Shown piece by piece: positions 1 through 25,111 of a stretch of DNA of 64,000 bases. A program made the position numbers and the translations under genes. Each line of letters begins with the position of its first letter. Within the stretch, counting starts at the first letter, position 1. The stretch comes from a virus. The DNA lies in IMG/VR virus record IMGVR_UViG_3300042464_001105, positions 24,178 to 88,177 of that record. One strand, given 5' to 3'. The notes below the pieces were generated by a model that searched no databases, was not told the DNA's origin, and worked only from the letters and a program-made list of their open reading frames with translations.

Positions 1-551
1 ACATTGCACGTGTGCTGGTCCCCGGGGGCTGCTTCTACATCTGGGGTGGTTACGCCAACTGCGGCAACTATCCCCCGTTCCTGAAGAAGCATGGATTGTA
101 CTTCAGCCAAGCGATCATCTGGAACAAGATGCATCCGGTTTTGACACGTAAAGATTTTATGGGCGCTCACGAGTGGGCGTTCTATGGATGGAACGAAGGT
201 GCCGGCCACAAGTACTATGGGCCGAACAACGAAACCGATTTGTGGAATGTTAAGAAGATCCCGCCACAACAACTTGAGCATCTGACTGGCAAGCCTGCCG
301 AGCTCGCGGTTCGATCAATTCAGTACTCGTCGCTTCCTGGCCACAACGTACTCGACCTCTTCGGTGGCAGCGGCTCAACCTTGATTGGCGCTGAGCAGAC
401 TGGACGCAATGCGTTCTTAATGGAACTCGATTGTCCATACGCAGACGTAATCGTTGATCGGTACCAAAGGTTCACCGGCAAGCAAGCGATTCTCGAGCGA
501 ACGGGTGAGTCACCGATTCCGATGAAGCCACGTGAAGCGAACATGCGATAG
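1..551 (+). CDS. DNA methyltransferase, N4/N6 (beta-class) family, 5'-truncated by the window edge
   Basis: HLTGKP followed by VLDLFGGSGSTLIGAEQTGR (SAM-binding FxGxG) and MELDCPYADVIVDRY; typical phage methylase upstream of the terminase. Confidence 0.9.
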   Translation, partial: IARVLVPGGCFYIWGGYANCGNYPPFLKKHGLYFSQAIIWNKMHPVLTRKDFMGAHEWAFYGWNEGAGHKYYGPNNETDLWNVKKIPPQQLEHLTGKPAELAVRSIQYSSLPGHNVLDLFGGSGSTLIGAEQTGRNAFLMELDCPYADVIVDRYQRFTGKQAILERTGESPIPMKPREANMR

Positions 552-561
552 GAGGTCGCGT

Positions 562-879
562 TCAAAGTTTATGACAATGCCAAGCTTGATCCTCGAAAAC
601 ATAAACGTACTCAGTACCACAGTTCCTTGCGAACTCGTGGAGGGCAGCGCGCGTTGGCATGGCGACCGCGTTATTGCCAGCGGTAAATCGCTCCGGACTA
701 CCGTCGTTAGCGAGCGATCGAATATCGCCGCCAGCAACAAGCGTCCGTACCGAATCAATAGCGATGTAGTTTTGTTCGAGAATCTTGCCGGCATGGTCTG
801 GGTAACCATCGAAGTGCAGATAGATCGCCGCATACCGACCATCGTCTTGCTTGCAAGCGATCGTGGCTCGTGTAGACAT
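562..879 (-). CDS. Conserved phage hypothetical protein (MSTR...IYxHxDGYP family)
   Basis: MSTRATI...AIYLHFDGYP...EYVYVFED..W pattern recurrent in phage proteins; AAGGA SD. Confidence 0.8.
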   Translation of the reverse strand: MSTRATIACKQDDGRYAAIYLHFDGYPDHAGKILEQNYIAIDSVRTLVAGGDIRSLANDGSPERFTAGNNAVAMPTRAALHEFARNCGTEYVYVFEDQAWHCHKL

Positions 880-891
880 GTTTTGTGTTCC

Positions 892-1116
892 TTACTTCGA
901 TGGTTCGTGATGGTTGGGTTCGACGATAGAGACGCAATCGTCAGGCATCGTCAACATGAGGGTTCGACCGTTGTCCCAATCAACATCGATCTGCGTCCAG
1001 TCGCGATGATCGTAAACGGCGACAACGGTTCCGAGCGATCCAACGGGAATCGGATCGGGATCCTGCAGCATCGACACCAAACGGATGCGATCGCCTTGCT
1101 TCAATCGTGTTTTCAT
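892..1116 (-). CDS. DUF4314-like protein
   Basis: GDRIRLVSMLQDPDPIPVGSLGTV...IDVDWDNGRTLML; usual neighbour of phage amidoligases. Confidence 0.85.
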   Translation of the reverse strand: MKTRLKQGDRIRLVSMLQDPDPIPVGSLGTVVAVYDHRDWTQIDVDWDNGRTLMLTMPDDCVSIVEPNHHEPSK

Positions 1117-1161
1117 AGTTGTTGGTTCCTTACTGTGAGCGAAGCAAAAAAATACGAACCG

Positions 1162-1196
1162 TCACAATCAGCCAGCAAGTCAAGAAAACATCAAGC
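1162..1196 (-). promoter_or_regulatory. Repeated promoter-like motif, copy 1 (degenerate)
   Basis: Minus strand gcTTGATGttttcttgacttgctggctgattgtga, upstream of gene start 1116. Confidence 0.45.
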
Positions 1197-1365
1197 CGAC
1201 ATCCAAGCTTGTTTTCTAGATTTCTTGCAAATATGTGGATCCGCCGGAGAAGCTCAGGGTTGCGTTGTGTCGCGTTGCATTTCAGGTTGGGTTTGTGCCC
1301 GTATCCACGAGGAAAAGCCCACACGTTGCAAACGTTGGGCGATTGGTGTGGGATCCAGCGAAGTA

Positions 1366-1785
1366 TTAATCTCGACTCGGAACCAACACGCATGCTCCGT
1401 CACCAGTGATTGGGTACTCCTTCAGTTCGCTTGTCCTTGCGAACAACTGGTCGCTTCGACGTATCACGTAGTCAACGTATGCGAAGCACTCGGTATCATC
1501 AATCCGCCTGAGTTGGTACCGAACTCCCGGTTCAGGAACAGCGATCTGTTCGACGTACAGGTCCGAGATGGTCTTCACTTCGTCAATGTAAGGGCCGGCT
1601 GGTCGCAAAATGCCCAGCGTGCTGCGAAACGAAATGCGTTGGCCTGTTGCTTGGTTGGTGGCGATGATATGTGTGGTCTCGCCAGCCTTCGACGGCTGAA
1701 AGATCGATTCGACCTTGACGATGATCGTCTTACCACAATGGCAAGCGACATACCGCTCGCCAATCCGGATGTCTTTGGCTCGCAT
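1366..1785 (-). CDS. Hypothetical protein; N-terminus paralogous to that of the next gene
   Basis: MRAKDIRIGERY...ATNQATGQRISFRS resembles MKKAEVTIGGKY...ATNLATGKKVLIKS of 1789-2367. Confidence 0.7.
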   Translation of the reverse strand: MRAKDIRIGERYVACHCGKTIIVKVESIFQPSKAGETTHIIATNQATGQRISFRSTLGILRPAGPYIDEVKTISDLYVEQIAVPEPGVRYQLRRIDDTECFAYVDYVIRRSDQLFARTSELKEYPITGDGACVLVPSRD

Positions 1786-1788
1786 GAT

Positions 1789-2367
1789 CTAGCCCCGTAC
1801 CGTAAAGCGGCCGCGTTCTGTTTTGACAAACTTGCTGTCGTCGCCCTTGGCCAGGTCGCGAAGGATCGCGCTATACAAGGTCGCGTGCGGAGTCTTGCCC
1901 CCAGGACTCGACCAGTAACCCTTGGCTTCCATCGCGGTAACCAACTCTTGAGCATTCATCGGTTCGGAGGATTCGCCAAGGACCTTCAAAGCCGCCGTGA
2001 CGCAACTCAATCGCTTCTCGCTGGCGTCGGCGCTTTCCGTCGCTGTTGCTGCAGTCTTTGCCTTACGAAGCTTCTTTGGAACCGCCCCTACTGTGGATGC
2101 TGCTTCTCCAATCGTCTCGACCGTAGCCGGTTCGTTCTCAACAATCGTGACGTTACCTTCTGTGGTTACCTTCGCGCCTCCGCGCCGCATGCCGACTTCA
2201 CCCTGCAAGCGCTGAGCGCTCTTGATCAGGACCTTCTTACCGGTCGCGAGGTTGGTGGCATCCCAGCCACCGCGCGGCTTCTCGGCGTCGATCTGGATCT
2301 CACATCGATTGCAAGAAACGTTTGCATAGTACTTGCCGCCGATCGTAACTTCTGCCTTCTTCATCAT
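1789..2367 (-). CDS. Winged-helix (HARE-HTH-like) DNA-binding protein
   Basis: LSCVTAALKVLGESSEPMNAQELV...GKTPHATLYSAILRD...FVKTERGRF; start chosen after the GGAG SD. Confidence 0.8.
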   Translation of the reverse strand: MMKKAEVTIGGKYYANVSCNRCEIQIDAEKPRGGWDATNLATGKKVLIKSAQRLQGEVGMRRGGAKVTTEGNVTIVENEPATVETIGEAASTVGAVPKKLRKAKTAATATESADASEKRLSCVTAALKVLGESSEPMNAQELVTAMEAKGYWSSPGGKTPHATLYSAILRDLAKGDDSKFVKTERGRFTVRG

Positions 2368-2457
2368 TCTTTCTCCCAATTCGTATTCGTGGTTGGCTGC
2401 CATCGTCAGGTCGATCGAACCACCGATCAACTACGCGATTCCGTTCCGCGTTTCGGC

Positions 2458-2793
2458 TTATTTGGAAAAGACCAAGTCGGCCAATCCGGTAGAAAGAAAA
2501 TCCACAATCACCTGAATCTCTGTATTAGCCGCAGGTACATCCAATCCGCGGTCAAAGCTAAAAAGTGTTTTGTGGTCGGCGATTCGTTCGATCCAAAGTT
2601 TCGAGATCTTGCTCTTGCCCAATTCGTAGTCTTCGCTTTTTGCGTGCTCGGCGAAAACCAAAGCGTTGAACTTGTATTGCTCGTTGACCGTTCCAATCAC
2701 CCAGGTACCGCCACCCGTGGTGCGTCGATCGATCTTGGTGATCGTCAGGTCGAGGTCTATGTCGTTTTCCCCGTTGTTGTTTGTCTTTGTCAT
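2458..2793 (-). CDS. Hypothetical phage protein
   Basis: GGAG SD then ATG 2793; FNALVFAEHA...ISKLWI...FDRGLD. Confidence 0.7.
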   Translation of the reverse strand: MTKTNNNGENDIDLDLTITKIDRRTTGGGTWVIGTVNEQYKFNALVFAEHAKSEDYELGKSKISKLWIERIADHKTLFSFDRGLDVPAANTEIQVIVDFLSTGLADLVFSK

Positions 2794-2835
2794 CTTTGCG
2801 TCTCCGTTTTGAAAAGCTGTGAACATCGTTTTGCG

Positions 2836-2876
2836 TCAACACACAGTTCGCATGCGCTTCGCATTACATCAAGCGC
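2836..2876 (-). promoter_or_regulatory. Repeated promoter-like motif, copy 2
   Basis: Minus strand gcgcTTGATGtaatgcgaagCGCATGcgaacTGTGTGTTga, upstream of gene start 2793. Confidence 0.55.
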
Positions 2877-2928
2877 TGTTGGAAAAGATTCAGATAATTC
2901 TTTTCCACAGCGCCGCGGTTCGTCGCGA

Positions 2929-3201
2929 TCAGAAATCTCGACACGTCTCCCAAGCTCGTTTGCTGCCGTAGCAGATCTGCCCACCTTCGACGATGTAGAC
3001 CGTGTTGTCATCGGCAACGTCTTGGGCATCGTCTTCGTCCGCATCTTCGTCGCTTGCTTCGTTCATGTCGCGGCCGCTGGTCACGCCGAAGATACGGTTC
3101 TCGAAAGGCCAATTCTGCTGAGTCATCAACCGTATTTTGGCGTCGCCTCCGAACTCTTCGCGGTAGTCGTTGAGGATTTCGATCAAGGTGTCGAGGTTCA
3201 T
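2929..3201 (-). CDS. Hypothetical acidic phage protein
   Basis: GGAG SD; MNLDTLIEILNDY...RLMTQQNWPFE...VYIVEGGQICYG. Confidence 0.75.
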   Translation of the reverse strand: MNLDTLIEILNDYREEFGGDAKIRLMTQQNWPFENRIFGVTSGRDMNEASDEDADEDDAQDVADDNTVYIVEGGQICYGSKRAWETCRDF

Positions 3202-3239
3202 GTTCTTATCTCCGTTGGGGTGAATGAAAAGTCGTTTTC

Positions 3240-3280
3240 CGATAACACACATGAGCCATGCGGTTTGAACCGAAGCAACT
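3240..3280 (-). promoter_or_regulatory. Repeated promoter-like motif, copy 3
   Basis: 26 bp cgataacacacatgagccatgcggtt identical to 3726-3751; upstream of gene start 3201. Confidence 0.65.
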
Positions 3281-3486
3281 CAAATCCAGAAGGTTTTCCC
3301 AGTCTTTTGGAATGTTTTTTTGAATGCCCAACGGTGCACAACGTTGGCGCATGTCGCGTCGTTTTCGAAGTCGCATTGTTGGGCGTGGCGAGCCAGCAGG
3401 ATGCGACGGTGGGCGAGTGTGTCGACCAAGCGAGAAAACGCCGCGCATCCGTACGCGGCGTTCTAGGGATATTGCTTGTGCGCTGT

Positions 3487-3684
3487 TTAAAGGATCGAAC
3501 CGAGTCGGCTCTTCTTCATCGCTTCGAGTGCTTCGCAGGCGTAAAGGTGTTCGACGAGCAAAGGGCATGCGGACTCTTGTTGTGCTGCGTCGGCGATCTC
3601 GAGGGCGTCTGCCAAGGTTCGCAATCCCTCGATCTCTCGAAGAGCGGCGTCGGTTGCTTTGTGTTCGTTGCTGTTCTTGGCCAT
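3487..3684 (-). CDS. Small hypothetical protein
   Basis: GGAG SD, preceded by a copy of the repeated promoter-like motif. Confidence 0.6.
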   Translation of the reverse strand: MAKNSNEHKATDAALREIEGLRTLADALEIADAAQQESACPLLVEHLYACEALEAMKKSRLGSIL

Positions 3685-3725
3685 GGTTCTGTCTCCGTTG
3701 TGGGAAAGGGTTTGAATCGTTTATG

Positions 3726-3768
3726 CGATAACACACATGAGCCATGCGGTTCAAAACACATCAAGCGC
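3726..3768 (-). promoter_or_regulatory. Repeated promoter-like motif, copy 4
   Basis: Minus strand gcgcTTGATGtgttttgaacCGCATGGCTcatgTGTGTtatcg, upstream of gene start 3684. Confidence 0.65.
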
Positions 3769-3978
3769 AGTATGCGAGTAAATGGAAAAGATTCTGCAGC
3801 TTTCTTCCGGTGCCGACACAAAGCACAAAACGCGACGTGTGGCGTTCAAAAAAAGCTTGGGTCGCCATTAGTTACTTACCCCAAGGATGCGACTGCTGGC
3901 GGACGTTACGATCGAGAATGCCAGAACAACGAACTACGTCGAGCGATTCTGCTCGGCGTAGTTCGTGGATCTCGTTTC

Positions 3979-4839
3979 TTAGGCAGCCGTGTCGTATTTC
4001 TTGGCCAAGTCCAAAAGTTTCGTTTTGATCGTCTTCCAATCTGGGGTTTGGTCCCCGTTGGTGATCTCGCCGAAGGTCTTCTTTCGAAGGTCGCCCTTGT
4101 ACCAACCCTTGGTCCATCCGAGCCGGTAGAACAGTCGGTTCAATTCCGTTTCGCCGAGGCCGGCATCGGGGCGATCCCAGCAGCTCTTGGTTCCTTCTTT
4201 CTTGGCGTAATCCCAATCGGGGCATCGTTTGGAGTTGAGGGCGAGTTCGACCAAACCCAAAACCATCATCAGGTATCCAATCACCTTGGTTTTGTTCAGC
4301 GTGCCGGCGAAAGCTCTGAACTCGATTCGGTTCTTGCCTTGTCGAAGGTGGGTCAAATTCAAAAGATGGTAGCGGTCCGATTCGCATTGGCTCTTCGCGG
4401 TGTCTTTGTCGCCGTAGTGTTTGATCTTCTTGGTGTATACCGCGTGTTCGCGTCGTCGCGATCCGGTCGAGGCGAAGATCGCTCGTTCGTGGTTGCCGAC
4501 CAAGGAAATCAATCTTGCCAGGGCGGCGGCGTCTCCGTTGAAGGTCAGGGTTATGTGAAGTCCGCAGCTTGCGTTGACCCGTGCGTCGCGAGTATTTATC
4601 GCGTCGATCGCGTTCTCAACCTCTTTCATTCCTGCGTATCCGACAAGTTTTGGGCTTACAAACTCGCAGCCTTTGCGGCTCATGTTTTCCGGTTTGATAC
4701 TCGCGTCGCGTTCTGCTTTCCATCCGGTTGGAAGCCAGGGTACTTGGTAACCGCCGTGGTAGGGGCCGATCGGTGTATTGTCGGTACCGGGGAGGGTGGT
4801 TTCGAATTCAATTCCGAAGGTGATCTCGTTTGCGTTCAT
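3979..4839 (-). CDS. Putative amidoligase (Amidoligase_2-like)
   Basis: TFGIEFE, DASI, CEFVSP, VNASCGLHI, RYHLLNL, IEFRAF motifs; AAGGA SD. Confidence 0.9.
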   Translation of the reverse strand: MNANEITFGIEFETTLPGTDNTPIGPYHGGYQVPWLPTGWKAERDASIKPENMSRKGCEFVSPKLVGYAGMKEVENAIDAINTRDARVNASCGLHITLTFNGDAAALARLISLVGNHERAIFASTGSRRREHAVYTKKIKHYGDKDTAKSQCESDRYHLLNLTHLRQGKNRIEFRAFAGTLNKTKVIGYLMMVLGLVELALNSKRCPDWDYAKKEGTKSCWDRPDAGLGETELNRLFYRLGWTKGWYKGDLRKKTFGEITNGDQTPDWKTIKTKLLDLAKKYDTAA

Positions 4840-4892
4840 CGTTCTGTTCCTTTGTGGTTCAAGGTGTGTTTTGCGTCGCGCTTTCCGCGTCG

Positions 4893-4934
4893 CGATGACA
4901 CAATGGAGCCATGCGTTTCGAGGATCATCCAGCC
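4893..4934 (-). promoter_or_regulatory. Repeated promoter-like motif, copy 5
   Basis: Minus strand gcTGGATGatcctcgaaaCGCATGGCTccatTGTGTcatcg, upstream of the amidoligase. Confidence 0.6.
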
Positions 4935-5113
4935 GCTTCCTGCATGTTTTTTCAGTAATTGTGCATGTTTTCTGAGAGGCAACCGGTGCCCCAACATTAC
5001 GCCACGGTGGCGTCCAAACATGCATCGCATAACAAGGCGAACATGCAAACAAAACGCGACTGTGGCGAACGTGTCGCAACCAGTGGCAATTCAACGGATC
5101 ATGGAGGAATGGG

Positions 5114-5320
5114 ATGAGTGAAGGCAACAACCAGGTCGACCCAACGCGACTTTCGATCGAGCAGGCAGGAAAGCTACTTTCAGCTGCTTATCGAGAGCGA
5201 ATAGAGGTCGCAAAGATTCAGGAAGACATCGACGCCGGCGCACCGACCAATGCCGACGGAACGATCAACCTCGTGCACTACAGCGCATGGCAAGCAGAGG
5301 AGATGGGACATGGCGAATAG
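5114..5320 (+). CDS. Small phage protein, possibly a terminase small-subunit-like DNA-binding protein
   Basis: GGAGGA SD at 5103-5108; LSIEQAGKLLS...DIDAGAPTNADGTINLVHYSAW; position before the terminase. Confidence 0.75.
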   Translation: MSEGNNQVDPTRLSIEQAGKLLSAAYRERIEVAKIQEDIDAGAPTNADGTINLVHYSAWQAEEMGHGE

Positions 5321-5330
5321 AATCGCGACG

Positions 5331-5768
5331 CTAAGAGATTGGAAGAGTCCAGTCTTGGACAGTCAATCCAGGAATTCGCTCATAATCAACTGTATTTCGT
5401 GTTATGACAGTCATGTGCTGACTGATCGCAATCGATGCAATCCGCAGATCCATGGTTGCGACTCGAATTCTATTACGCTTAAAGTCCTCGAATACCTCGG
5501 ATGCCGCGAGGTTGAACGGAAGAACCTGCGAGCAAGAGAAGTCCTTCAAAACTTGTTCGAGTCGAGCATACCCAGTGACAATCTTTTGAGGGCTATTCGA
5601 CTGTTTAACATACTTTGTCCAACCTGCAACAATCTCGTGAAAAGAGACGATGGTTGTGTACACGTTCGAATCACTAACTACTGCAATTCTTTTGAGAACG
5701 TTAGTGCAGTCTTCGCCCCTGTGGCCTTGCAAGATGCCAAGGTGATCCGTGTAGAGAATAAACATCAA
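5331..5768 (-). CDS. vapC: PIN-domain (VapC-like) toxin
   Basis: IVSFHE, MDLRIASIA, VITRNTVDYERIPGL motifs; the N-terminal motif reads LYTD rather than LDTD. Confidence 0.85.
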   Translation of the reverse strand: MMFILYTDHLGILQGHRGEDCTNVLKRIAVVSDSNVYTTIVSFHEIVAGWTKYVKQSNSPQKIVTGYARLEQVLKDFSCSQVLPFNLAASEVFEDFKRNRIRVATMDLRIASIAISQHMTVITRNTVDYERIPGLTVQDWTLPIS

Positions 5769-5770
5769 CC

Positions 5771-5977
5771 TTACTCGTCATTCAGAATATCGGTTTGCCG
5801 CTCTTCACGCCCCAACCGGAGAATCTCTGCAAAATCGGGGTCATCTTTGAACGAACCTTCGATTTTGGCGATCCACCCTGGTTTCTTCGCAGCGAGATCG
5901 ATTTTGCTTGATTGCGAAAGCTTAAGAAGAGTTACTTCCTTTTCCAATTGCTCAAGTCGTTCTTCAACCGTGGCCAT
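5771..5977 (-). CDS. Putative antitoxin
   Basis: GGAG SD; MATVEERLEQLEKEV...GSFKDDPDFAEILRLGREER; directly upstream of the PIN gene. Confidence 0.75.
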   Translation of the reverse strand: MATVEERLEQLEKEVTLLKLSQSSKIDLAAKKPGWIAKIEGSFKDDPDFAEILRLGREERQTDILNDE

Positions 5978-6054
5978 ATACATCTCCAAGGAATCCAACA
6001 AGACACGACGTTCTATTGTACCTTGTAGTTCATCCAAAGGGAAAGGCCGAAAAG

Positions 6055-8322
6055 ATGCGATCTGATCCAAGGAAACTAAAGCCAAGCGAGCTATGCCGAC
6101 TGCTCAATTCAACACCGCTGGGTGAGGTGATCAGCGAGCGACAACTGTATCGGCATCGTCAGCGCGCCGGCGCACGCATTGGTGATAACAAGACCGTTGA
6201 TTTGCTTCGCTATTGTGCTTGGATGCATCGCGTACGACACACGCCTCGGGCGACAAGCGGTGTTGATCCATACGATGCGATGAAAGAGCGAGCGCGTGCA
6301 CGCAATGCAGCACTGGCACTCGCTGGTCGCGACATTGGTGAACTGCCGGAGGTCGACAACGTTGATCGCAAAGATCGCGCAGCGCGTGACTTCCGCTATT
6401 TCTGTGAAACGTATTTCCCATTGACGTTTCATCTTGCGTGGTCGCCGGACCACATCAAGGTCATGGATAAGATTGAGCAAGCCGTTGTCCATGGGGGATT
6501 GTTTGCGCTAGCGATGGCGCGGGGTAGTGGGAAAAGTTCGATCGCCGAGGTTGCCTGCATCTGGGCAGTTCTATATGGGCATCGCAACTTCGTTTGTTTG
6601 ATCGGCAGCGATGAAGGCCATGCGTGTGACATGCTCGACTCGATCAAAACAGAACTCGACAGCAACGAGTTGCTCTTGGCCGATTTCCCCGAAGTTATCT
6701 TTCCTATTCAAGCCCTCGATGGGATATCGAATCGAGCTAATGGGCAGCTTTATAAAGGCAAGCGAACGCAGATCGGATGGACCGCAAAGGAGGTAGTGCT
6801 ACCAACGATTGATGGCAGCAGTGCCAGCGGTGCGATTATCAAAGTGGCTGGCCTGACCGGTCGTATCCGAGGTATGAAGTTCAAACGCCCTGATGGCAGA
6901 ACGGTGCGTCCAAGTTTAGTCGTGCTCGATGACCCCCAGACCGACGAGAGTGCTCGTTCGCTATCGCAATGCGCGAATCGCGAAAGCATTCTCGCCGGCG
7001 CAGTCCTTGGCTTAGCAGGACCGGGCAAAAAGATCTCTGGCATCATGCCCTGTACCGTCATTCGCCCGAGCGACATGGCCGACAATATCCTCGATCGCAA
7101 TCGCCATCCCGAATGGAATGGCGAACGAACCAAGATGGTTTATGCGTTCCCTAAGAATGAAACGCTGTGGGAGCGCTATGCCGAGATCCGTGCCGAAGGA
7201 ATGCGTAACGGCGATGGTGGCGAATCGGCCACCGAGTTCTATCGTCAGAACCAAGCCGCGATGGATGAGGGTGCTGTTGTCGCTTGGCAAGAGCGATTCA
7301 ACTACGACGAACTCTCCGCGATCCAGCACGCAATGAATCTCAAGTTGCAGGACGAGGCCGCATTCTTTGCCGAGTATCAAAATCAGCCTCTGCCGGCGGA
7401 AACGATTGTCGATGGGATGCTCAAGCCCGAGGAGGTCGCAAGCAAGGTTAATCGTATGGATCGCGGGTTATTATCGATTGGAGCAAACCAACTCACCGCC
7501 TTCATCGACGTTCAGCAGAAGCTTTTATTTTATGCGGTCACCGCCTGGGAGGATAATTTCACGGGCTACATTGTCGACTATGGCTGTTACCCCGATCAAC
7601 AGCGTCCCTACTTCACGCTGCGCGAGGCTCGCCAGACGCTGAGCTCCGAAGCGACTGGAACCGGACTCGAGGGTTCGATCTATGCCGGCCTCGAATCGCT
7701 GACATCGAAATTGCTCGATCGTGAGTGGCAGCGCGACGATGGTGCAGCGATGCGCATCGGTCGCTGTTTGATCGACGCTAACTGGGGCCAATCGACGGAT
7801 GTCGTCTACCAGTTCTGCCGGCAGTCCAAGCACGCCGCTGTGATCATGCCCAGCCACGGTCGGTTCGTCGGCGCTTCAAGTTTGCCGTTCAGCGAGTATC
7901 GTCGCCGACCAGGTGATCGCGTAGGACTCAACTGGCGCATCCCAAACGTTAGCGGGAAGCGGGCGATTCGCCACGTGGTATACGACACCAATTGGTGGAA
8001 GTCGTTTGTCAACGCTCGCCTTCGAGTGAACATGGGAGATCGTGGTTGTCTATCGCTCTTCGGTAGCAACTCCGAAACGCATCGCATGCTCGCCGAGCAT
8101 CTAACTTCGGAGTACTTCATCAAGACCGAGGCTCGCGGCCGAAGCGTTGACGAATGGAAGCAGCGACCTGAGCAGCCAGACAACCACTGGTTCGACTGTT
8201 TGGTTGGCTCAGCGGTTGCGGCTTCGATGCAAGGAGCAATTTTATTTGGAACCGAAGCAACACTCGATATTTCCCGAAAACGCATGAGTTTTAAAGAGCT
8301 TCAGCAGACCCGACGCAAATAA
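6055..8322 (+). CDS. Terminase large subunit (GpA-like nuclease domain, N-terminal HTH-like extension)
   Basis: Walker A ARGSGKS, Walker B VVLDDPQ, nuclease motifs AFIDVQ, LIDANWG, NHWFDC. Confidence 0.9.
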   Translation: MRSDPRKLKPSELCRLLNSTPLGEVISERQLYRHRQRAGARIGDNKTVDLLRYCAWMHRVRHTPRATSGVDPYDAMKERARARNAALALAGRDIGELPEVDNVDRKDRAARDFRYFCETYFPLTFHLAWSPDHIKVMDKIEQAVVHGGLFALAMARGSGKSSIAEVACIWAVLYGHRNFVCLIGSDEGHACDMLDSIKTELDSNELLLADFPEVIFPIQALDGISNRANGQLYKGKRTQIGWTAKEVVLPTIDGSSASGAIIKVAGLTGRIRGMKFKRPDGRTVRPSLVVLDDPQTDESARSLSQCANRESILAGAVLGLAGPGKKISGIMPCTVIRPSDMADNILDRNRHPEWNGERTKMVYAFPKNETLWERYAEIRAEGMRNGDGGESATEFYRQNQAAMDEGAVVAWQERFNYDELSAIQHAMNLKLQDEAAFFAEYQNQPLPAETIVDGMLKPEEVASKVNRMDRGLLSIGANQLTAFIDVQQKLLFYAVTAWEDNFTGYIVDYGCYPDQQRPYFTLREARQTLSSEATGTGLEGSIYAGLESLTSKLLDREWQRDDGAAMRIGRCLIDANWGQSTDVVYQFCRQSKHAAVIMPSHGRFVGASSLPFSEYRRRPGDRVGLNWRIPNVSGKRAIRHVVYDTNWWKSFVNARLRVNMGDRGCLSLFGSNSETHRMLAEHLTSEYFIKTEARGRSVDEWKQRPEQPDNHWFDCLVGSAVAASMQGAILFGTEATLDISRKRMSFKELQQTRRK

Positions 8323-8407
8323 TTTTTGGGACGTCGTTCGGACAAATTGCATAGTTAGTACTGGAAGAGGCAATCGAGTTTCTTTTTCACTCGAAGAGGG
8401 TTTCCAG

Positions 8408-8605
8408 ATGTTAGATAACTTGCAAGACGCGATTCGCGACAATGCCAAGGCACCCGCCAAGGCGTCAGGTGATGCTGGCAGTGTTGAGCAACATAACCTC
8501 AAGGATCAAATTGAAGCGGACAAATACCTCGCCTCCAAGCGAGCGACCCAAACTAAGAATCGTGGATTGCGATTTAACAAGATCGTGCCACCTGGCGCGG
8601 ACTAA
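8408..8605 (+). CDS. Small head-completion-type protein (gpW position)
   Basis: 65 aa between terminase and lambda-type portal; GAGGG SD. Confidence 0.65.
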   Translation: MLDNLQDAIRDNAKAPAKASGDAGSVEQHNLKDQIEADKYLASKRATQTKNRGLRFNKIVPPGAD

Positions 8606-8660
8606 CTAAGCATCTTCGGAAATAGGCTGTCGGAACAGCGACACTCAAGGAAAGACACGG

Positions 8661-10154
8661 ATGTTCCCATACTTGTCAGGGATCTTTAGCAAAAGACCTC
8701 GTCGGACAGTCCGTCCGTCGCGGGGTGGAAGCTTGTTCCGACAGCCTTTCTCATTCAAACCGCGTGTTGATGCTCGTTATGACGCAGCGGTTACCAACGA
8801 TGACAATCGAAGACATTGGTCGGCCGCTGATGGTTTGTCTGCAAAAACTGCGAACGGGGCCAGCATCCGCCGGACCTTACGCAACCGAGCACGTTATGAA
8901 ATTGCCAACAACAGCTACGCACGTGGCATTTCGCTGACGTTGGCCAATGACATTGTGGGTACCGGTCCTCGTCTACAAATGCTTACCGATGATCCCATTG
9001 CCAATCGCACCATCGAAATGGAGTTCAGTCGCTGGTCCAATGCGGTCGGTCTCGCTGAGAAACTAAGAACGATGAAGTTGGCCTGCTGTGGCGATGGGGA
9101 AGCCTTCGGCATTATGACCAGCAACCCAAGCGTCCAAACACCGGTTCAATTGGACTTGATGCTTGTCGAAGCAGACCAAGTGACCACTCCATTCGGTGTG
9201 AATGGTTTGTCCAACTACATCGATGGTATTCAATTCGACTCCTTCGGGAATCCTGTCTATTACCACGTACTCAAGTCGCATCCAGGTGACACCGGATCTG
9301 CGTGGGGTGAATTCGATATCGTTGCAACCAGTGCGATGTTGCATTTGTTTCGTGTGGATCGGCCTGGCCAAGTACGTGGCATCCCAGAGATCACACCGGC
9401 GCTTCCGTTGTTCGCACAACTTCGGCGATTCACGCTCGCGGTGATTTCTGCCGCCGAAACCGCAGCTGACTTTGCTGGGATTTTGTACACCGACTCCCCC
9501 GCAAATGGTGAAGCCGATGCAGCCGAACCATTTGAACCGATCGAACTAGAGAAGCGAACTCTGGTAACGATGCCTGGCGGATGGAAGATGAGCCAAATTC
9601 ACGCCGAGCAGCCAACGACCTCGTATGCGGAATTCAAACATGAAATCCTCAATGAGATCGCGCGCTGCCTCAACATGCCGTTCAATGTCGCAGCTGGGAA
9701 TTCTTCGGGCTACAATTATGCGAGTGGGCGACTCGATCACCAAACCTACTTCAAATCCATCCGTGTCGATCAGTCGAATATGGCACGTGTGGTGCTCGAT
9801 CGCATTCTATCAGCGTGGCTCAGCGAAGCCATTCTCATTGAAGGCTTACTGCCTCAATCTGTTCGAACAACAGACTTCGACGCCTCGCATCAATGGTTCT
9901 TCGATGGACATGAGCATGTCGATCCATTGAAAGAGGCAAACGCCCAAGCAACACGTCTTTCCAATCATACCACGACTCTGGCATACGAGTATGCGCGACA
10001 AGGTCGTGATTGGGAAGATGCCCTCTTTCAACGAGCCAAGGAATTGGCATTGATGTCTGAGCTTGGCCTTGCATTACCTGGCGCACCGGTGCCTGTACTT
10101 ACCCCCGATGTCAACGAGGAGTCTCTCAGTGACCCAGCTGCTAACGATGAATAG
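8661..10154 (+). CDS. Portal protein, lambda family
   Basis: LRNRARYE..NNSYA, DGEAF, RPGQVRGIP, NYASGRL, HVDPLKEANA. Confidence 0.93.
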   Translation: MFPYLSGIFSKRPRRTVRPSRGGSLFRQPFSFKPRVDARYDAAVTNDDNRRHWSAADGLSAKTANGASIRRTLRNRARYEIANNSYARGISLTLANDIVGTGPRLQMLTDDPIANRTIEMEFSRWSNAVGLAEKLRTMKLACCGDGEAFGIMTSNPSVQTPVQLDLMLVEADQVTTPFGVNGLSNYIDGIQFDSFGNPVYYHVLKSHPGDTGSAWGEFDIVATSAMLHLFRVDRPGQVRGIPEITPALPLFAQLRRFTLAVISAAETAADFAGILYTDSPANGEADAAEPFEPIELEKRTLVTMPGGWKMSQIHAEQPTTSYAEFKHEILNEIARCLNMPFNVAAGNSSGYNYASGRLDHQTYFKSIRVDQSNMARVVLDRILSAWLSEAILIEGLLPQSVRTTDFDASHQWFFDGHEHVDPLKEANAQATRLSNHTTTLAYEYARQGRDWEDALFQRAKELALMSELGLALPGAPVPVLTPDVNEESLSDPAANDE

Positions 10155-23032: not shown

Positions 23033-25111
23033 ATGTCCGCAACCAATGTGAGAGCAGGACGAGCGTACGTTGAGATCGCTGCTGATTCGTCACGGTTGGG
23101 TCGCGATCTGCGCGCGGCTCAAACTCAGATACGCGGCTTTGGGGATTCGGTTCGAAACATTGGATTGCAACTGGGAACGTTGTTTTCGGGCGCAGCGCTT
23201 AGCGGTGGGATTTTGAATTCGGCCAGGTCGTTCGCAGATGCTGGATCGGCACTGGACGATCTTTCACAGCGTTCGGGCGCATCGGTAGAATCGCTGGGGG
23301 CATTGTCGTTGGCTGCCAAGCTGTCCGATACCAGCATGGAGACCTTAGGGAAAGCATTTGCAAAGATGCAACTCCTTATAGTGAAGGCGTCCAAGGGGAA
23401 TGATGAGGCTGTTGATGCGATCCAGTCCCTTGGTCTCAATCTGCGAAGTCTCGCGCGCATGTCACCCGACAAGCAATTTGAAGCCTTTGCAGGTGCCATT
23501 GCGAAACTCCAAGATCCGGCGTTGCGGGCCAACGCTGCCGTTTCCGTGTTTAGCAAAAGTGGTCTTGAGTTACTTCCTATGCTCATGGAGGGAAAGGATG
23601 GCTTGAGGGATTTGGCCAAAGAGGCTCGCGACCTTGGATTGGTGATGTCAGGGAAGGATGCGGCATCGGCTGCCGTGTTCGGCGACACACTTGATAAACT
23701 ACGCATGTCCCTGACAGCCGTTTATAACAAAATCGGTGCGGCGCTGGCTCCCATGCTCAATCGTATCACCAGCATTTTTGTTAGTGTGTCCGCGGCCGTT
23801 ACCAAATGGCTCGACAAGAATCGTGGGATCATCGCTTTGGTAGCACCCATTGTGGCTGCTCTTGGTTCGGCCGGGGCTTCGGCCATTGGTTTGGGGTTAG
23901 CATTCAAGATTGCAGCGATTGCGGTAGGACCAGCGTTACTTGCGGCCCTTATCGCTGTGAAGACCGCGATTGTAACTGTCGCAGGTGTGCTGGCTGCAGT
24001 TGCGATTCCGGCGTTAGCGGTGGCTGCTGCAATCGGCGGACTGACGGCTACGATATACGCATTGGGGATAACTTGGACCGATGTGGCGACAACGATTGCC
24101 AACGTGTGGTCGAGTGCCATGTCCTTCATTGGCAATTCTCTCAGCCCTGTGGGAACTTTTATTGCCAACTGGGTTAGTAAAATAGTCAATGGCTTCGCAT
24201 GGATGTATGACGGCGCTACCCAGTATTTCGGTGCCATTGGCAAAGCGCTCGCCGATGGCAACCTCGAGGGCGCTGGCCAAGTCGCCATGACCGGACTCAC
24301 ACGTGCCTTCCGTGGAGGATTCAACGTACTCTACGGCTACTACCTCGCCTTCATCGAGGGTTGGAAGTCCTCGTGGGATATGTGGACAACAGGTCTTGCG
24401 GATGGTTTTGTGGTCGCCTGGACAAGTATCGAATCGACTTTCACAGACACCATTTCGTACCTTGGTCAAATGTGGACTCTGTTTACTACCGGTTTAACGA
24501 TCGCTTGGAATTCTTCTATCGGGTTCATCCAAAAAGCTTGGATCCGGCTCAAGGCGATGTTTGATAAGGATATCAATGTTACGGCCGAGACCAATGCTAT
24601 CGAACAGCGAACATTGGATGCGAATGGGAATGCCTTTGCGAGTGGTGAGTCTGCCATCGTAGCTCGTGAGAAACAACGACGAGACCGTCAGTCGCAGATC
24701 CAAGTGGAGCGCGCGACCATGATCGGCACTCTAGAATCGGACCGCCAGCGAAGACAAACCGATCATGCTAAAGCGACCGACAGCCTCATGGGCCAAGCGA
24801 ACGCGGAGTTCGACACTGCCAAGCAGAGGTACGAAGCGTCTATCAAGGCAGTTCAGGAATTCAGACCAGATTTCAAAGCACGCAAGAACAAGTTCGGTTT
24901 CGATCCCGAAAGTCTTTTAACCGATACATACAGTCCAGAAAAGAGCCTCACGGAAGCGAGAACGCGCATCGAATCGAAAGGGACATTTAGCGCCTTTGGT
25001 GCACGTGGACTGCAATCCGACTCGGTAGAAAAATCATCGGCTGAGACGGCCAAGAATACAGCCGCCATGTTGCAGTGGATGAAACAAAACCCCGGAGTCC
25101 GATTCATATGA
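23033..25111 (+). CDS. Tape measure protein
   Basis: AGRAYVEI N-terminus, Ala/Gly-rich helices, periodic Trp, central hydrophobic segment. Confidence 0.88.
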   Translation: MSATNVRAGRAYVEIAADSSRLGRDLRAAQTQIRGFGDSVRNIGLQLGTLFSGAALSGGILNSARSFADAGSALDDLSQRSGASVESLGALSLAAKLSDTSMETLGKAFAKMQLLIVKASKGNDEAVDAIQSLGLNLRSLARMSPDKQFEAFAGAIAKLQDPALRANAAVSVFSKSGLELLPMLMEGKDGLRDLAKEARDLGLVMSGKDAASAAVFGDTLDKLRMSLTAVYNKIGAALAPMLNRITSIFVSVSAAVTKWLDKNRGIIALVAPIVAALGSAGASAIGLGLAFKIAAIAVGPALLAALIAVKTAIVTVAGVLAAVAIPALAVAAAIGGLTATIYALGITWTDVATTIANVWSSAMSFIGNSLSPVGTFIANWVSKIVNGFAWMYDGATQYFGAIGKALADGNLEGAGQVAMTGLTRAFRGGFNVLYGYYLAFIEGWKSSWDMWTTGLADGFVVAWTSIESTFTDTISYLGQMWTLFTTGLTIAWNSSIGFIQKAWIRLKAMFDKDINVTAETNAIEQRTLDANGNAFASGESAIVAREKQRRDRQSQIQVERATMIGTLESDRQRRQTDHAKATDSLMGQANAEFDTAKQRYEASIKAVQEFRPDFKARKNKFGFDPESLLTDTYSPEKSLTEARTRIESKGTFSAFGARGLQSDSVEKSSAETAKNTAAMLQWMKQNPGVRFI

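Follow-up and report, generated by a model that had tools for sequence, protein, structure and literature searches.

A codon-aligned array of backward genes under a 4.6-kb stop-free frame in a planctomycete prophage

Why would one strand of a phage genome stay free of stop codons for 4.6 kb when its genes lie on the other strand? This question is raised by a planctomycete prophage in which 8 or 9 real backward genes sit under 4.6 kb of stop-free opposite strand. The window analyzed is a 64,000-nt stretch (positions 24,178 to 88,177) of the 88,177-nt IMG/VR record IMGVR_UViG_3300042464_001105. Its plus-strand "bridge" frame has stop-to-stop limits of 526-5121 (4593 nt) and ranks second by length among the open frames of the record. 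With 0 stops in its 1529 codons, it forms an uninterrupted reverse ORF over all of the backward genes, against 47 and 49 internal stops in the other two plus frames. The stop-free frame is real and far above chance.

The ends of the frame are as the preliminary description gave them. The methylase TAG is overlapped by a Shine-Dalgarno-like AGGAGGT at 550-556, and the in-frame starts are GTG 532 and ATG 571, the latter 20 nt past the methylase stop. At its 3′ end, the frame overlaps the next gene through ATGAGTGA at 5114-5121, with GGAGG just ahead. The complete methylase gene encodes 475 aa and begins 876 nt ahead of the window, and the stop codon of the convergent backward gene 1 begins 11 nt past the methylase stop.

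Table 1. Positions, strands and supporting evidence for the features of the array and its flanks.
Feature	Position	Strand	Evidence
DNA methylase gene, 3′ part	3..551	+	Pfam N6_N4_Mtase, E 1.3e-18; TAG stop 549-551
Stop-free bridge frame, 1529 codons	532..5121	+	GTG start 532; TGA 5119-5121 within ATGAGTGA
Backward gene 1, 105 aa, phage family of unknown function	562..879	-	phrog_1987, E 1.7e-23
Backward gene 2, 74 aa, DUF4314	892..1116	-	Pfam, E 4.2e-12
Backward gene 3, 139 aa, no family match	1366..1785	-	ORF in register
Backward gene 4, up to 213 aa, start uncertain, C-terminal HARE-HTH	1789..2430	-	Pfam, E 3.1e-13
Backward gene 5, 122 aa, DUF7678	2458..2826	-	Pfam, E 1.3e-13
Backward gene 6, up to 107 aa, acidic C-terminal part	2929..3252	-	No Pfam/PHROG match
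Probable ninth backward gene, small, in register	3283..3462	-	tblastn to relatives' ORFs
Backward gene 7, 65 aa	3487..3684	-	ORF in register; weak DUF465 match only
Backward gene 8, amidoligase, 286 aa from ATG 4839	3979..4839	-	Pfam Amidoligase_2, E 1.9e-13; phrog_2443, E 5.6e-26
44-nt promoter-like repeat, copies ahead of backward genes	4888..4931, 2829-2872, 3235-3278, 3721-3764	- (4888..4931)	Repeat search, family D1
Conserved divergent intergenic region, within the plus frame	4840..5113		16-sequence alignment, 86% mean column identity
Small gene, 68 aa, first of packaging block	5114..5320	+	Start ATGAGTGA; no Pfam/PHROG match
Second, shorter open frame over backward toxin-antitoxin pair	5205..6065	+	Window and L001 only
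PIN toxin, backward	5331-5768	-	Under second plus frame
Presumed antitoxin, backward	5771-6085	-	Partner of PIN toxin
Large terminase gene, start codon uncertain	6016..8322	+	tblastn, 28-31% identity

Judged by the strand of database matches, the real genes are the backward ones, in register. The 70 non-redundant in-register ORFs of the arrays match 13 Pfam families (member counts sum to 26, one ORF being countable twice), compared with a Pfam match for 2 of 115 out-of-register ORFs, and tblastn yields 1275 minus-strand and 3 plus-strand matches. Within the window, 5 of the eight minus ORFs match known families, and ORFs of 139 aa, comparable to backward gene 3, are also present in register in the related loci L001 and L015. 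The spacer 3253-3486, first taken as empty, probably holds a ninth small in-register gene, with tblastn matches (E 1e-8 to 1e-14) to 64-66-aa in-register ORFs of L001, L015, L016, L026, L029, and L084. Its matches in L001 and L084 (window 3289-3462) are stop-free, while those in L015, L016, L026, and L029 reach 3238-3241 and include one minus-frame stop. A start at 5130 had been given for the last minus gene; the start is most likely 4839, because lineages align upstream of it in different frames and that part is thus not coding. The 17-nt core of the promoter-like repeat occurs in 82 copies within the arrays of 32 loci and 3 copies elsewhere, and 0 of the 82 array copies lie in the phase that would give a plus-strand TGA.

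All eight minus ORFs share one codon register, their low ends being uniformly 1 mod 3 as originally reported. Each of the nine non-genic pieces (36, 12, 249, 3, 27, 102, 234, 294, and 279 nt) is a multiple of 3; the rule was stated correctly at the outset, and the spacer lengths given with it differ from those of the re-set gene limits because other start codons had been chosen. The reported absence of TTA, CTA, and TCA is likewise exact: the 1111 codons of the eight backward genes contain 0 of each, whereas 7.8 TTA, 11.8 TCA, and 11.5 CTA (about 31 together) would be expected if codons were used as in 23 reference genes of the window, whose 14,340 codons include 2.8% TTA/TCA/CTA. This avoidance is specific and exceeds general codon bias, as other A-ending codons make up 18.7% of codons in the backward genes and 18.9% in the reference genes. 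Over 20,000 trials of synonymous resampling, antisense stops average 22.3 and never fall below 6, compared with 0 in the bridge frame, and the analytic probability of 0 antisense stops under this model is 10^-10.6. The longest codon-aligned antisense open run among the 23 reference genes is 246 codons. The spacers add 412 codons with 0 stops in the bridge frame versus 11 and 8 in the other plus frames; a chance of about 1e-9 was first claimed for this openness, and the recomputed value of roughly 7e-5 is much weaker. Together, the shared register, codon avoidance, and spacer rule make the forward strand a single uninterrupted frame. The shared register would follow from a need to keep the forward strand open, since synonymous changes can clear every opposite-strand stop only when the codons of both strands are aligned, a point made in part of PMC6884476.

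The frame persists at the same site in related prophages despite differing cargo, as had been predicted. It is stop-free in 20/20 distinct close loci (terminase ≥87% identical), where it spans 2442-7545 nt with 27.5-90 stops expected and covers 7-14 in-register backward genes. Control antisense frames over the structural genes of the close loci reach a maximum of 1656 nt. Among distant loci with GC <0.625, frames of 3.0-4.75 kb occur in 9/22, giving at least 9 distant relatives, and no control frame exceeds 1.7 kb in the 8 of these 9 that have one. Many of the 76 loci of GC-rich distant relatives are uninformative because composition also yields long antisense frames there; control antisense frames in GC-rich distant relatives have a median of 1566 nt and a maximum of 3435 nt. 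Across 32 loci, the array cargo comprises 70 different gene clusters.

The best reading, which we regard as evenly poised between right and wrong, is an "ambigrammatic" cassette array whose forward frame would be translated to keep the forward transcript accompanied by ribosomes. Backward accessory genes, most with a promoter-like element, are lodged between the replication/methylase and packaging blocks; resident genes are held to one codon register without TTA/CTA/TCA, and spacers to multiples of 3 without in-frame stops. Forward transcription leaving the methylase would presumably have no room to terminate because the convergent stops are 11 nt apart. Ribosomes would start at or just past the methylase stop, translate the frame, and move with RNA polymerase across the array, shielding the antisense transcript from Rho and head-on promoters until just before the packaging genes. 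Rho (PF07497) matches above cut-off are present in 2/2 complete host genomes searched. A search for RNA runs containing the stretch found none. The cost of a 1500-2500-residue unselected polypeptide counts against the translation reading.

The frame ends vary among relatives. An in-frame ATG/GTG lies 13-27 nt after the upstream gene stop in 13 of the 14 close loci with a long upstream plus gene, the Shine-Dalgarno-like AGGAGGT at the frame start is found in only some relatives, and ATGA overlaps mark the 5′ end in L031, L038, and L078. An ATGA or ATGAGTGA overlap onto the next gene occurs in the window, L015, L027, L028, L064, L066, and several distant loci. Among aligned close sequences, 8/16 have the 3′ stop/start overlap and the other 8/16 stop 62-160 nt before the small gene, so ribosome delivery to the small-gene start is not essential. 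Over its last 270 nt, the frame surpasses synonymous sites in conservation and contains inverted repeats resembling operators (GCATGTT at 4942 and 4963; AACATGC at 5017 and 5040), and the packaging genes may have a promoter of their own there. Some relatives weaken the frame's proposed link to packaging-gene expression and Rho.

Alternatively, the frame may be translated for the array itself, either in an excludon-like silencing of the backward genes on induction or because ribosomes guard the forward RNA wherever abundant backward mRNAs could pair with it. The always-kept part of the frame is exactly the backward genes plus the last promoter-like repeat, with a 3′ end that floats within the next 160 nt, and several backward genes come with a promoter-like element of their own; RNA protection by ribosomes is also raised as a possible role in part of the narnavirus work (PMC8316113). 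However, antisense silencing requires transcription rather than translation, and the stop-free rule still implies a transcript surviving Rho, so this alternative, unlikely in itself, merges with the reading of ribosomes accompanying the transcript.

It is quite improbable that the plus frame is instead an overprinted gene for a functional giant protein tolerating almost any sequence. Such a gene would account for the length, conservation, and start codons of the ORF and for its operon-like stop/start overlaps, and part of PMC8850804 reports purifying selection on antisense overlapping genes in Pseudomonas aeruginosa, namely olg1 and olg2 (957 and 1536 nt), each within a single gene. The bridge frame resembles them as a long ORF antisense to annotated genes but spans many genes without protein-level selection. 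Its substitutions peak at plus phase 1, the third position of the minus codons, and these positions diverge as fast (0.32-0.45) as third positions of the single-coded terminase (0.33-0.47). Spacer substitutions are flat across plus phases (583, 621, and 611), length varies threefold with cargo, and the composition resembles antisense translation. None of the 6 plus translations examined has a Pfam match, and that of the window has no PHROG match. Because substitutions track minus-strand codons and are even over plus phases in the spacers, the frame is kept open, but not as a protein; its persistence in all close loci agrees with the original proposal of selection for openness. Purifying selection on the frame's own protein was not found.

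A pattern that arose by chance and as a side effect of how imported genes use codons or of their base composition, the forward frame being under no selection, would fit the higher GC3 of the cassette genes (0.64 versus 0.54 in reference genes) and the long compositional frames of GC-rich relatives, but this reading has practically no chance of being right and is effectively refuted by the frame stop counts, the resampling, the undepleted A-ending codons, the in-frame stop-free spacers beside two plus frames full of stops, and the recurrence over the 70 clusters and 20 close relatives.

Parts of four reports (PMC6884476, PMC7010960, PMC8155312, PMC8316113) describe ambigrammatic narnaviruses, in which a stop-free reverse ORF lies over the RdRp gene. 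As portrayed there, narnaviruses and the prophage array share a codon-aligned reverse ORF without stops, avoidance of CUA/UUA/UCA beyond what GC3 explains, and absence of stops across diverged relatives. The narnavirus reverse ORF is indicated in these accounts not to be a functional protein, yet its translation seems to matter, and the array frame is likewise non-protein. Narnaviruses are described as single-gene RNA replicons of 3 kb found in eukaryotes, whereas the array belongs to a bacterial dsDNA prophage with terminase, primase-helicase, and methylase genes rather than an RNA genome with RdRp. Unlike in narnaviruses, the rule spans 8-14 genes, promoter-like elements, and all spacers over up to 7.5 kb, and the frame is set between operon genes with stop/start overlaps. 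Thus, the bridge frame works like an ambigram but the element is no narnavirus. A literature search found no description of an ambigrammatic array in a DNA phage.

To our knowledge, no phage system uses a kilobase-scale unselected ORF against Rho. The proposed logic is shared with Rho polarity, in which Rho is blocked by ribosomes following the RNA as it emerges and acts preferentially to remove antisense transcripts. Part of PMC12360218 states that translation shields intragenic Rho sites and that, in every organism studied, antisense transcription is kept down by Rho. Phages are known to counter Rho with N, Q, or Psu. Excludons, according to part of PMC7154746, are long antisense RNAs that double as mRNA for a neighboring operon. 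The geometry of the array, with 11 nt between the convergent stops, would imply a similar long transcript, one that opposes one set of genes and serves as sense RNA for its neighbor. We know of no report of excludon transcripts being kept translatable across the antisense part.

A general "ambigram rule" governing backward cargo in phage operons is a tentative proposition, a little short of an even call; here it would cover a whole promoter-bearing array, at least 70 gene clusters, and up to 14 genes in 7.5 kb. Under such a rule, ribosome-escorted transcription across head-on genes would be an essential and widespread alternative to protein antiterminators, and any gene captured into an array would undergo synonymous rewriting and register placement. 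If the best reading holds, selection can maintain a reading frame purely for the sake of its translation, across kilobases and many genes of a DNA genome. It would also give phages a new route to hold backward accessory genes without breaking an operon and would tie the "ambigram" puzzle of narnaviruses to a concrete mechanism in bacteria, the coupling of transcription and translation against Rho. The stop-free rule also offers an inexpensive way to recognize read-through transcription units and cargo arrays from the sequences of metagenomic phages. Gene callers are liable to annotate the huge junk ORF at the expense of the small genes that are real. The hosts are Planctomycetota, and the idea is testable because two cultured Pirellulaceae strains carry the relatives L084 and L089.

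Downstream, the ATGAGTGA at the start of the small packaging-block gene halts both other plus frames. It is present in 17/17 close relatives searched plus L136 (18/20 overall), the exceptions being L066 with ATGAGTGC and L134 with ATGGCCGA. Other inserts of backward toxin-antitoxin genes, in L027 and L046, have only short frames running across them and no single covering frame, which counts against a role of the open frame in keeping the packaging operon expressed. The terminase matches identified by tblastn are annotated large terminases of D3112-type and other phages.

The virus record that contains the window is 88,177 nt long, with a GC content of 50.6%. Plus-strand genes begin approximately 12 kb 5' of the window and run to a DNA methylase gene, after which eight genes lie on the minus strand (see table). 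Across these backward genes the plus strand forms a single frame, open from stop to stop at 526-5121 (the bridge frame), and further long plus-strand ORFs follow downstream of the terminase. A ninth small backward gene, codon-aligned (in register) with the bridge frame, probably occupies 3283-3462 in the spacer 3253-3486; it is homologous to in-register ORFs of 64-66 aa in six relatives. The TTG-started ORF at 3979-5130 is too long for the amidoligase gene, judging by the relatives' alignments 5' of 4839. Because relatives align there in differing frames, the similarity upstream of 4839 is at the DNA level.

Features in and around the backward gene array (window coordinates)
Feature	Position	Strand	Remarks
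PD-(D/E)XK nuclease	between ~12 kb before window and methylase	+	
AAA_24 protein	between ~12 kb before window and methylase	+	
D5/NrS-1-type primase-helicase	between ~12 kb before window and methylase	+	
DNA methylase, 475 aa	ends with TAG at 549-551	+	
Backward gene	562-879	-	phrog_1987
Backward gene	892-1116	-	DUF4314
Backward gene	1366-1785	-	
Backward gene	1789-2430	-	HARE-HTH
Backward gene	2458-2826	-	DUF7678
Backward gene	2929-3252	-	
Backward gene	3487-3684	-	
Backward gene	3979-4839	-	amidoligase
44-nt promoter-like repeat	2829-2872, 3235-3278, 3721-3764, 4888-4931		ahead of four backward genes
Small gene, 68 aa	starts 5114	+	plus-strand genes resume here
PIN toxin gene	5331-5768	-	weak Pfam match; inserted between small gene and terminase
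Presumed antitoxin gene	5771-6085	-	no family match; inserted between small gene and terminase
Large terminase	after small gene	+	

The bridge frame contains no internal stop, whereas the remaining two plus frames contain 47 and 49. In a codon reference of 23 window genes (14,340 codons), TTA, CTA, and TCA together make up 2.8% of codons, and the codon-aligned antisense strand stays open for at most 246 codons. All three codons are absent from the eight backward genes, as the preliminary description had reported, against expectations of 7.8, 11.5, and 11.8, respectively. The remaining A-ending codons, pooled, account for 18.7% in the backward genes versus 18.9% in the reference genes; the depletion is thus confined to the three codons whose reverse complements are stops. 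Redrawing Leu and Ser codons according to reference usage (20,000 draws) gave 22.3 ± 4.3 antisense stops with a minimum of 6, and the analytic probability of none is 10^-10.6. Nine non-genic pieces, 1236 nt in total, each have a length that is a multiple of 3, and their 412 codons contain no stop in the bridge frame versus 11 and 8 in the other plus frames. The single register claimed for the eight backward genes is also borne out and contributes a further (1/3)^7. The open frame exceeds chance, and that earlier conclusion stands, although the spacer figure of 1e-9 attached to it was too optimistic.

A search for relatives by terminase yielded 80 IMG/VR loci and 80 loci from genome contigs. 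Their named hosts are nearly all Planctomycetota, chiefly Pirellula and Pirellulaceae, with two complete chromosomes among them, which indicates that the relatives are integrated prophages. Megablast found no close relatives among deposited phages, and protein searches of these returned distant terminases and amidoligases only. The two complete Pirellulaceae genomes, G001 (locus L084) and G002 (L089, with L136 in the same record), each have two Rho_RNA_bind matches that pass the cut-off, suggesting a pair of Rho-like genes per genome.

The survey of the frame covered 96 distinct loci in which 2.5 kb or more of sequence precedes the terminase. All 20 close loci (terminase at least 87% identical) have a stop-free plus frame at the same place, 2442-7545 nt long (median 5457, the shortest being limited by contig ends), where the other plus frames predict 27.5-90 stops. 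Control antisense frames over the terminase and structural genes of these loci reach 1656 nt at the longest, with a median of 621. In every close locus, 7-14 backward ORFs (60 aa or longer) share a single register, and the gene sets differ; the frame is therefore kept despite different cargo, as the preliminary description had anticipated. Frame length ranges over 693-4752 nt in the 76 more distant loci, 54 of which have at least 10 expected stops. Many of the 76 are uninformative, since their genomes are GC-rich and their control antisense frames are long too (median 1566 nt, maximum 3435). GC is below 0.625 in 22 distant loci; nine of these have frames spanning 3.0-4.75 kb, and the eight of the nine that have controls show no control frame longer than 1.7 kb.

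The coding strand was assessed in 32 loci using clustered backward ORFs of at least 70 aa and a Pfam cut-off of E <= 1e-5. The 70 non-redundant in-register ORFs matched 13 Pfam families (an ORF may count under two): HARE-HTH in nine, Amidoligase_2 in three, Fic, DUF7678, and DUF4314 in two each, and PIN, Fic_N, three HTH families, PDDEXK_4, DUF7715, and DUF6900 in one apiece. Out of register, Pfam matches occurred in 2 of 115 ORFs, one of them at the very start of its frame, and include one FitA-like match. In tblastn searches, the proteins of the backward genes gave 1275 matches on the minus strand versus 3 on the plus strand, all three within one GC-rich locus. Plus-strand translations of the window and five relatives had no Pfam match, and their composition is like that of antisense translation. 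A real giant forward gene with backward shadow ORFs was rejected because family matches fall on backward and not forward ORFs; it is also contradicted by substitutions that track backward codons. One backward polyprotein in another genetic code was likewise rejected, as stops of all three kinds, 23 in total, interrupt the backward frame. The related locus L097 has a 74-aa backward ORF (1921-2145) that looks protein-like, contains CxxC pairs, and lies out of register within the stop-free frame, a possible exception that would make the open frame, not register, the primary constraint.

Substitutions relative to seven relatives are commonest at plus phase 1, which corresponds to backward codon position 3; counts over the three phases are 366, 156, and 193 between the window and the related locus L002. 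Backward third positions in ten relatives show 0.32-0.45 differences per site, compared with 0.33-0.47 in the terminase and 0.33-0.53 in the methylase, so a first-base change in nearly every plus codon is tolerated. Spacer substitutions are even over the phases (583, 621, and 611; four spacers, summed over 14 non-independent relatives). Because the phase pattern follows the backward codons and the spacers are phase-flat, the alignments indicate that the plus frame is kept open and in frame while its product is not conserved beyond what the backward codons impose, as had also been predicted. Among lake-metagenome contigs compared over 400-5400, none of the 38 listed in-frame substitutions creates a plus stop, which is not significant as 1.2 are expected. 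Only two indels are listed, +1 behind 879 and -1 at 887. They co-occur in contigs from three lake metagenomes and fall in the 12-nt spacer, and the frame is restored.

The 5' end was surveyed in 14 close loci with a long upstream plus gene. In 13 of them, that gene's stop is followed after 13-27 nt by an ATG or GTG in frame, at +20 in 10. Seven loci share the window's geometry, with the first backward stop codon beginning 11 nt past the upstream stop, a spacing that leaves no room for a terminator. It begins 3-18 nt past the upstream stop in three further loci; in the remaining four, the first backward stop called by script fell within the upstream gene. Only some relatives share the window's AGGAGGT. 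As for the 3' end, ATGAGTGA opens the small gene in 18 of the 20 loci examined and puts a stop in both other plus frames. Of 16 aligned close sequences, eight have a bridge that extends to this motif; in five it stops 62-85 nt short of the small gene and in three about 155-160 nt short. ATGA overlaps at the 3' or 5' end are present in distant loci as well.

The last 270 nt, the divergent intergenic region 4840-5113, has 86% column identity over 16 sequences, which exceeds synonymous-site conservation. With two GCATGTT and two AACATGC motifs within 100 nt, it looks like a regulated divergent promoter region with an operator cluster. Sigma-70 promoter and terminator scans of 1-6300 found sites no commoner than in shuffles, with none falling in 4840-5113; these outcomes say little because the consensus may not fit Planctomycetes.

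The 44-nt promoter-like repeat also occurs in the arrays of L002, L015, L016, L046, and other relatives, approximately 35-50 nt ahead of many backward genes; a single array may have as many as 11 copies. The 17-nt core of the repeat has 82 copies inside arrays (32 loci) versus 3 elsewhere, always in one orientation, and its conservation extends to relatives with a terminase of only 70% identity. The core starts at phase 0 in 67 copies, phase 2 in 15, and phase 1 in none; placement at phase 1 would create a plus TGA. Possible roles for the repeat are promoter, 5' leader, and site of recombination in cassette exchange.

Since only translation reads a strand in one frame, stop avoidance that is frame-specific yet lacks amino-acid selection is most simply explained by translation for its own sake. 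The shared register would follow from this need, as codon alignment is the only register that permits synonymous removal of all reverse stops, according to one study (PMC6884476). Forward transcription would leave the methylase gene and run on across the head-on array toward the packaging block, accompanied by ribosomes that would protect the transcript from Rho. Trailing ribosomes help RNA polymerase against backtracking, and this help would let the polymerase pass head-on promoters more easily. Such ribosome-escorted read-through, an evenly balanced proposition, is favoured because Rho is encoded in both complete host genomes, and one article describes intragenic Rho sites as shielded by translation, with polarity upon loss of coupling, and antisense transcription as suppressed by Rho in every organism studied (PMC12360218).

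In the window and the related locus L001, the toxin and antitoxin inserts (region 5205-6085) are covered by an 861-nt open plus frame. However, L027 and L046 have other inserts of backward toxin-antitoxin genes, which are crossed by short frames only, without one covering frame; this counts against read-through, as do the floating 3' end of the bridge among relatives and the possible promoter within 4840-5113. A search for RNA runs containing the stretch listed none. The floating end agrees with an unlikely variant in which the forward transcript is translated so that it can silence, or survive, the array itself. A functional giant protein encoded by the forward frame is a far slimmer prospect and chance a barely credible one, and both are poorly supported.

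Every sequence-level hallmark of ambigrammatic narnaviruses, in which both strands are free of stops with codons aligned, is present here, but the element is a DNA prophage with many genes. Four reports judge the narnavirus reverse ORF to have no function as a protein, but its translation seems to be required (PMC6884476, PMC7010960, PMC8155312, PMC8316113). The prophage plus frame resembles it in that the product is not conserved. A literature search covering few subscription journals found no description of such a frame in any DNA phage. Genes, promoter-like elements, and spacers of the array all obey the stop-free rule, making it a notably modular case of ambigrammatic design.

The record begins with a minus frame that is open for 10,096 nt. 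It was rejected as a second bridge because it encodes a real protein with Big_13, Big_7, and Big_5 domains. This ORF (2-10096 of L081, the window's own record; record 1-10096, before the window) exceeds 3365 aa and runs off the record start. It also carries a dockerin domain and a sub-threshold Peptidase_M74 match, and its predicted product is a real giant surface-type protein.
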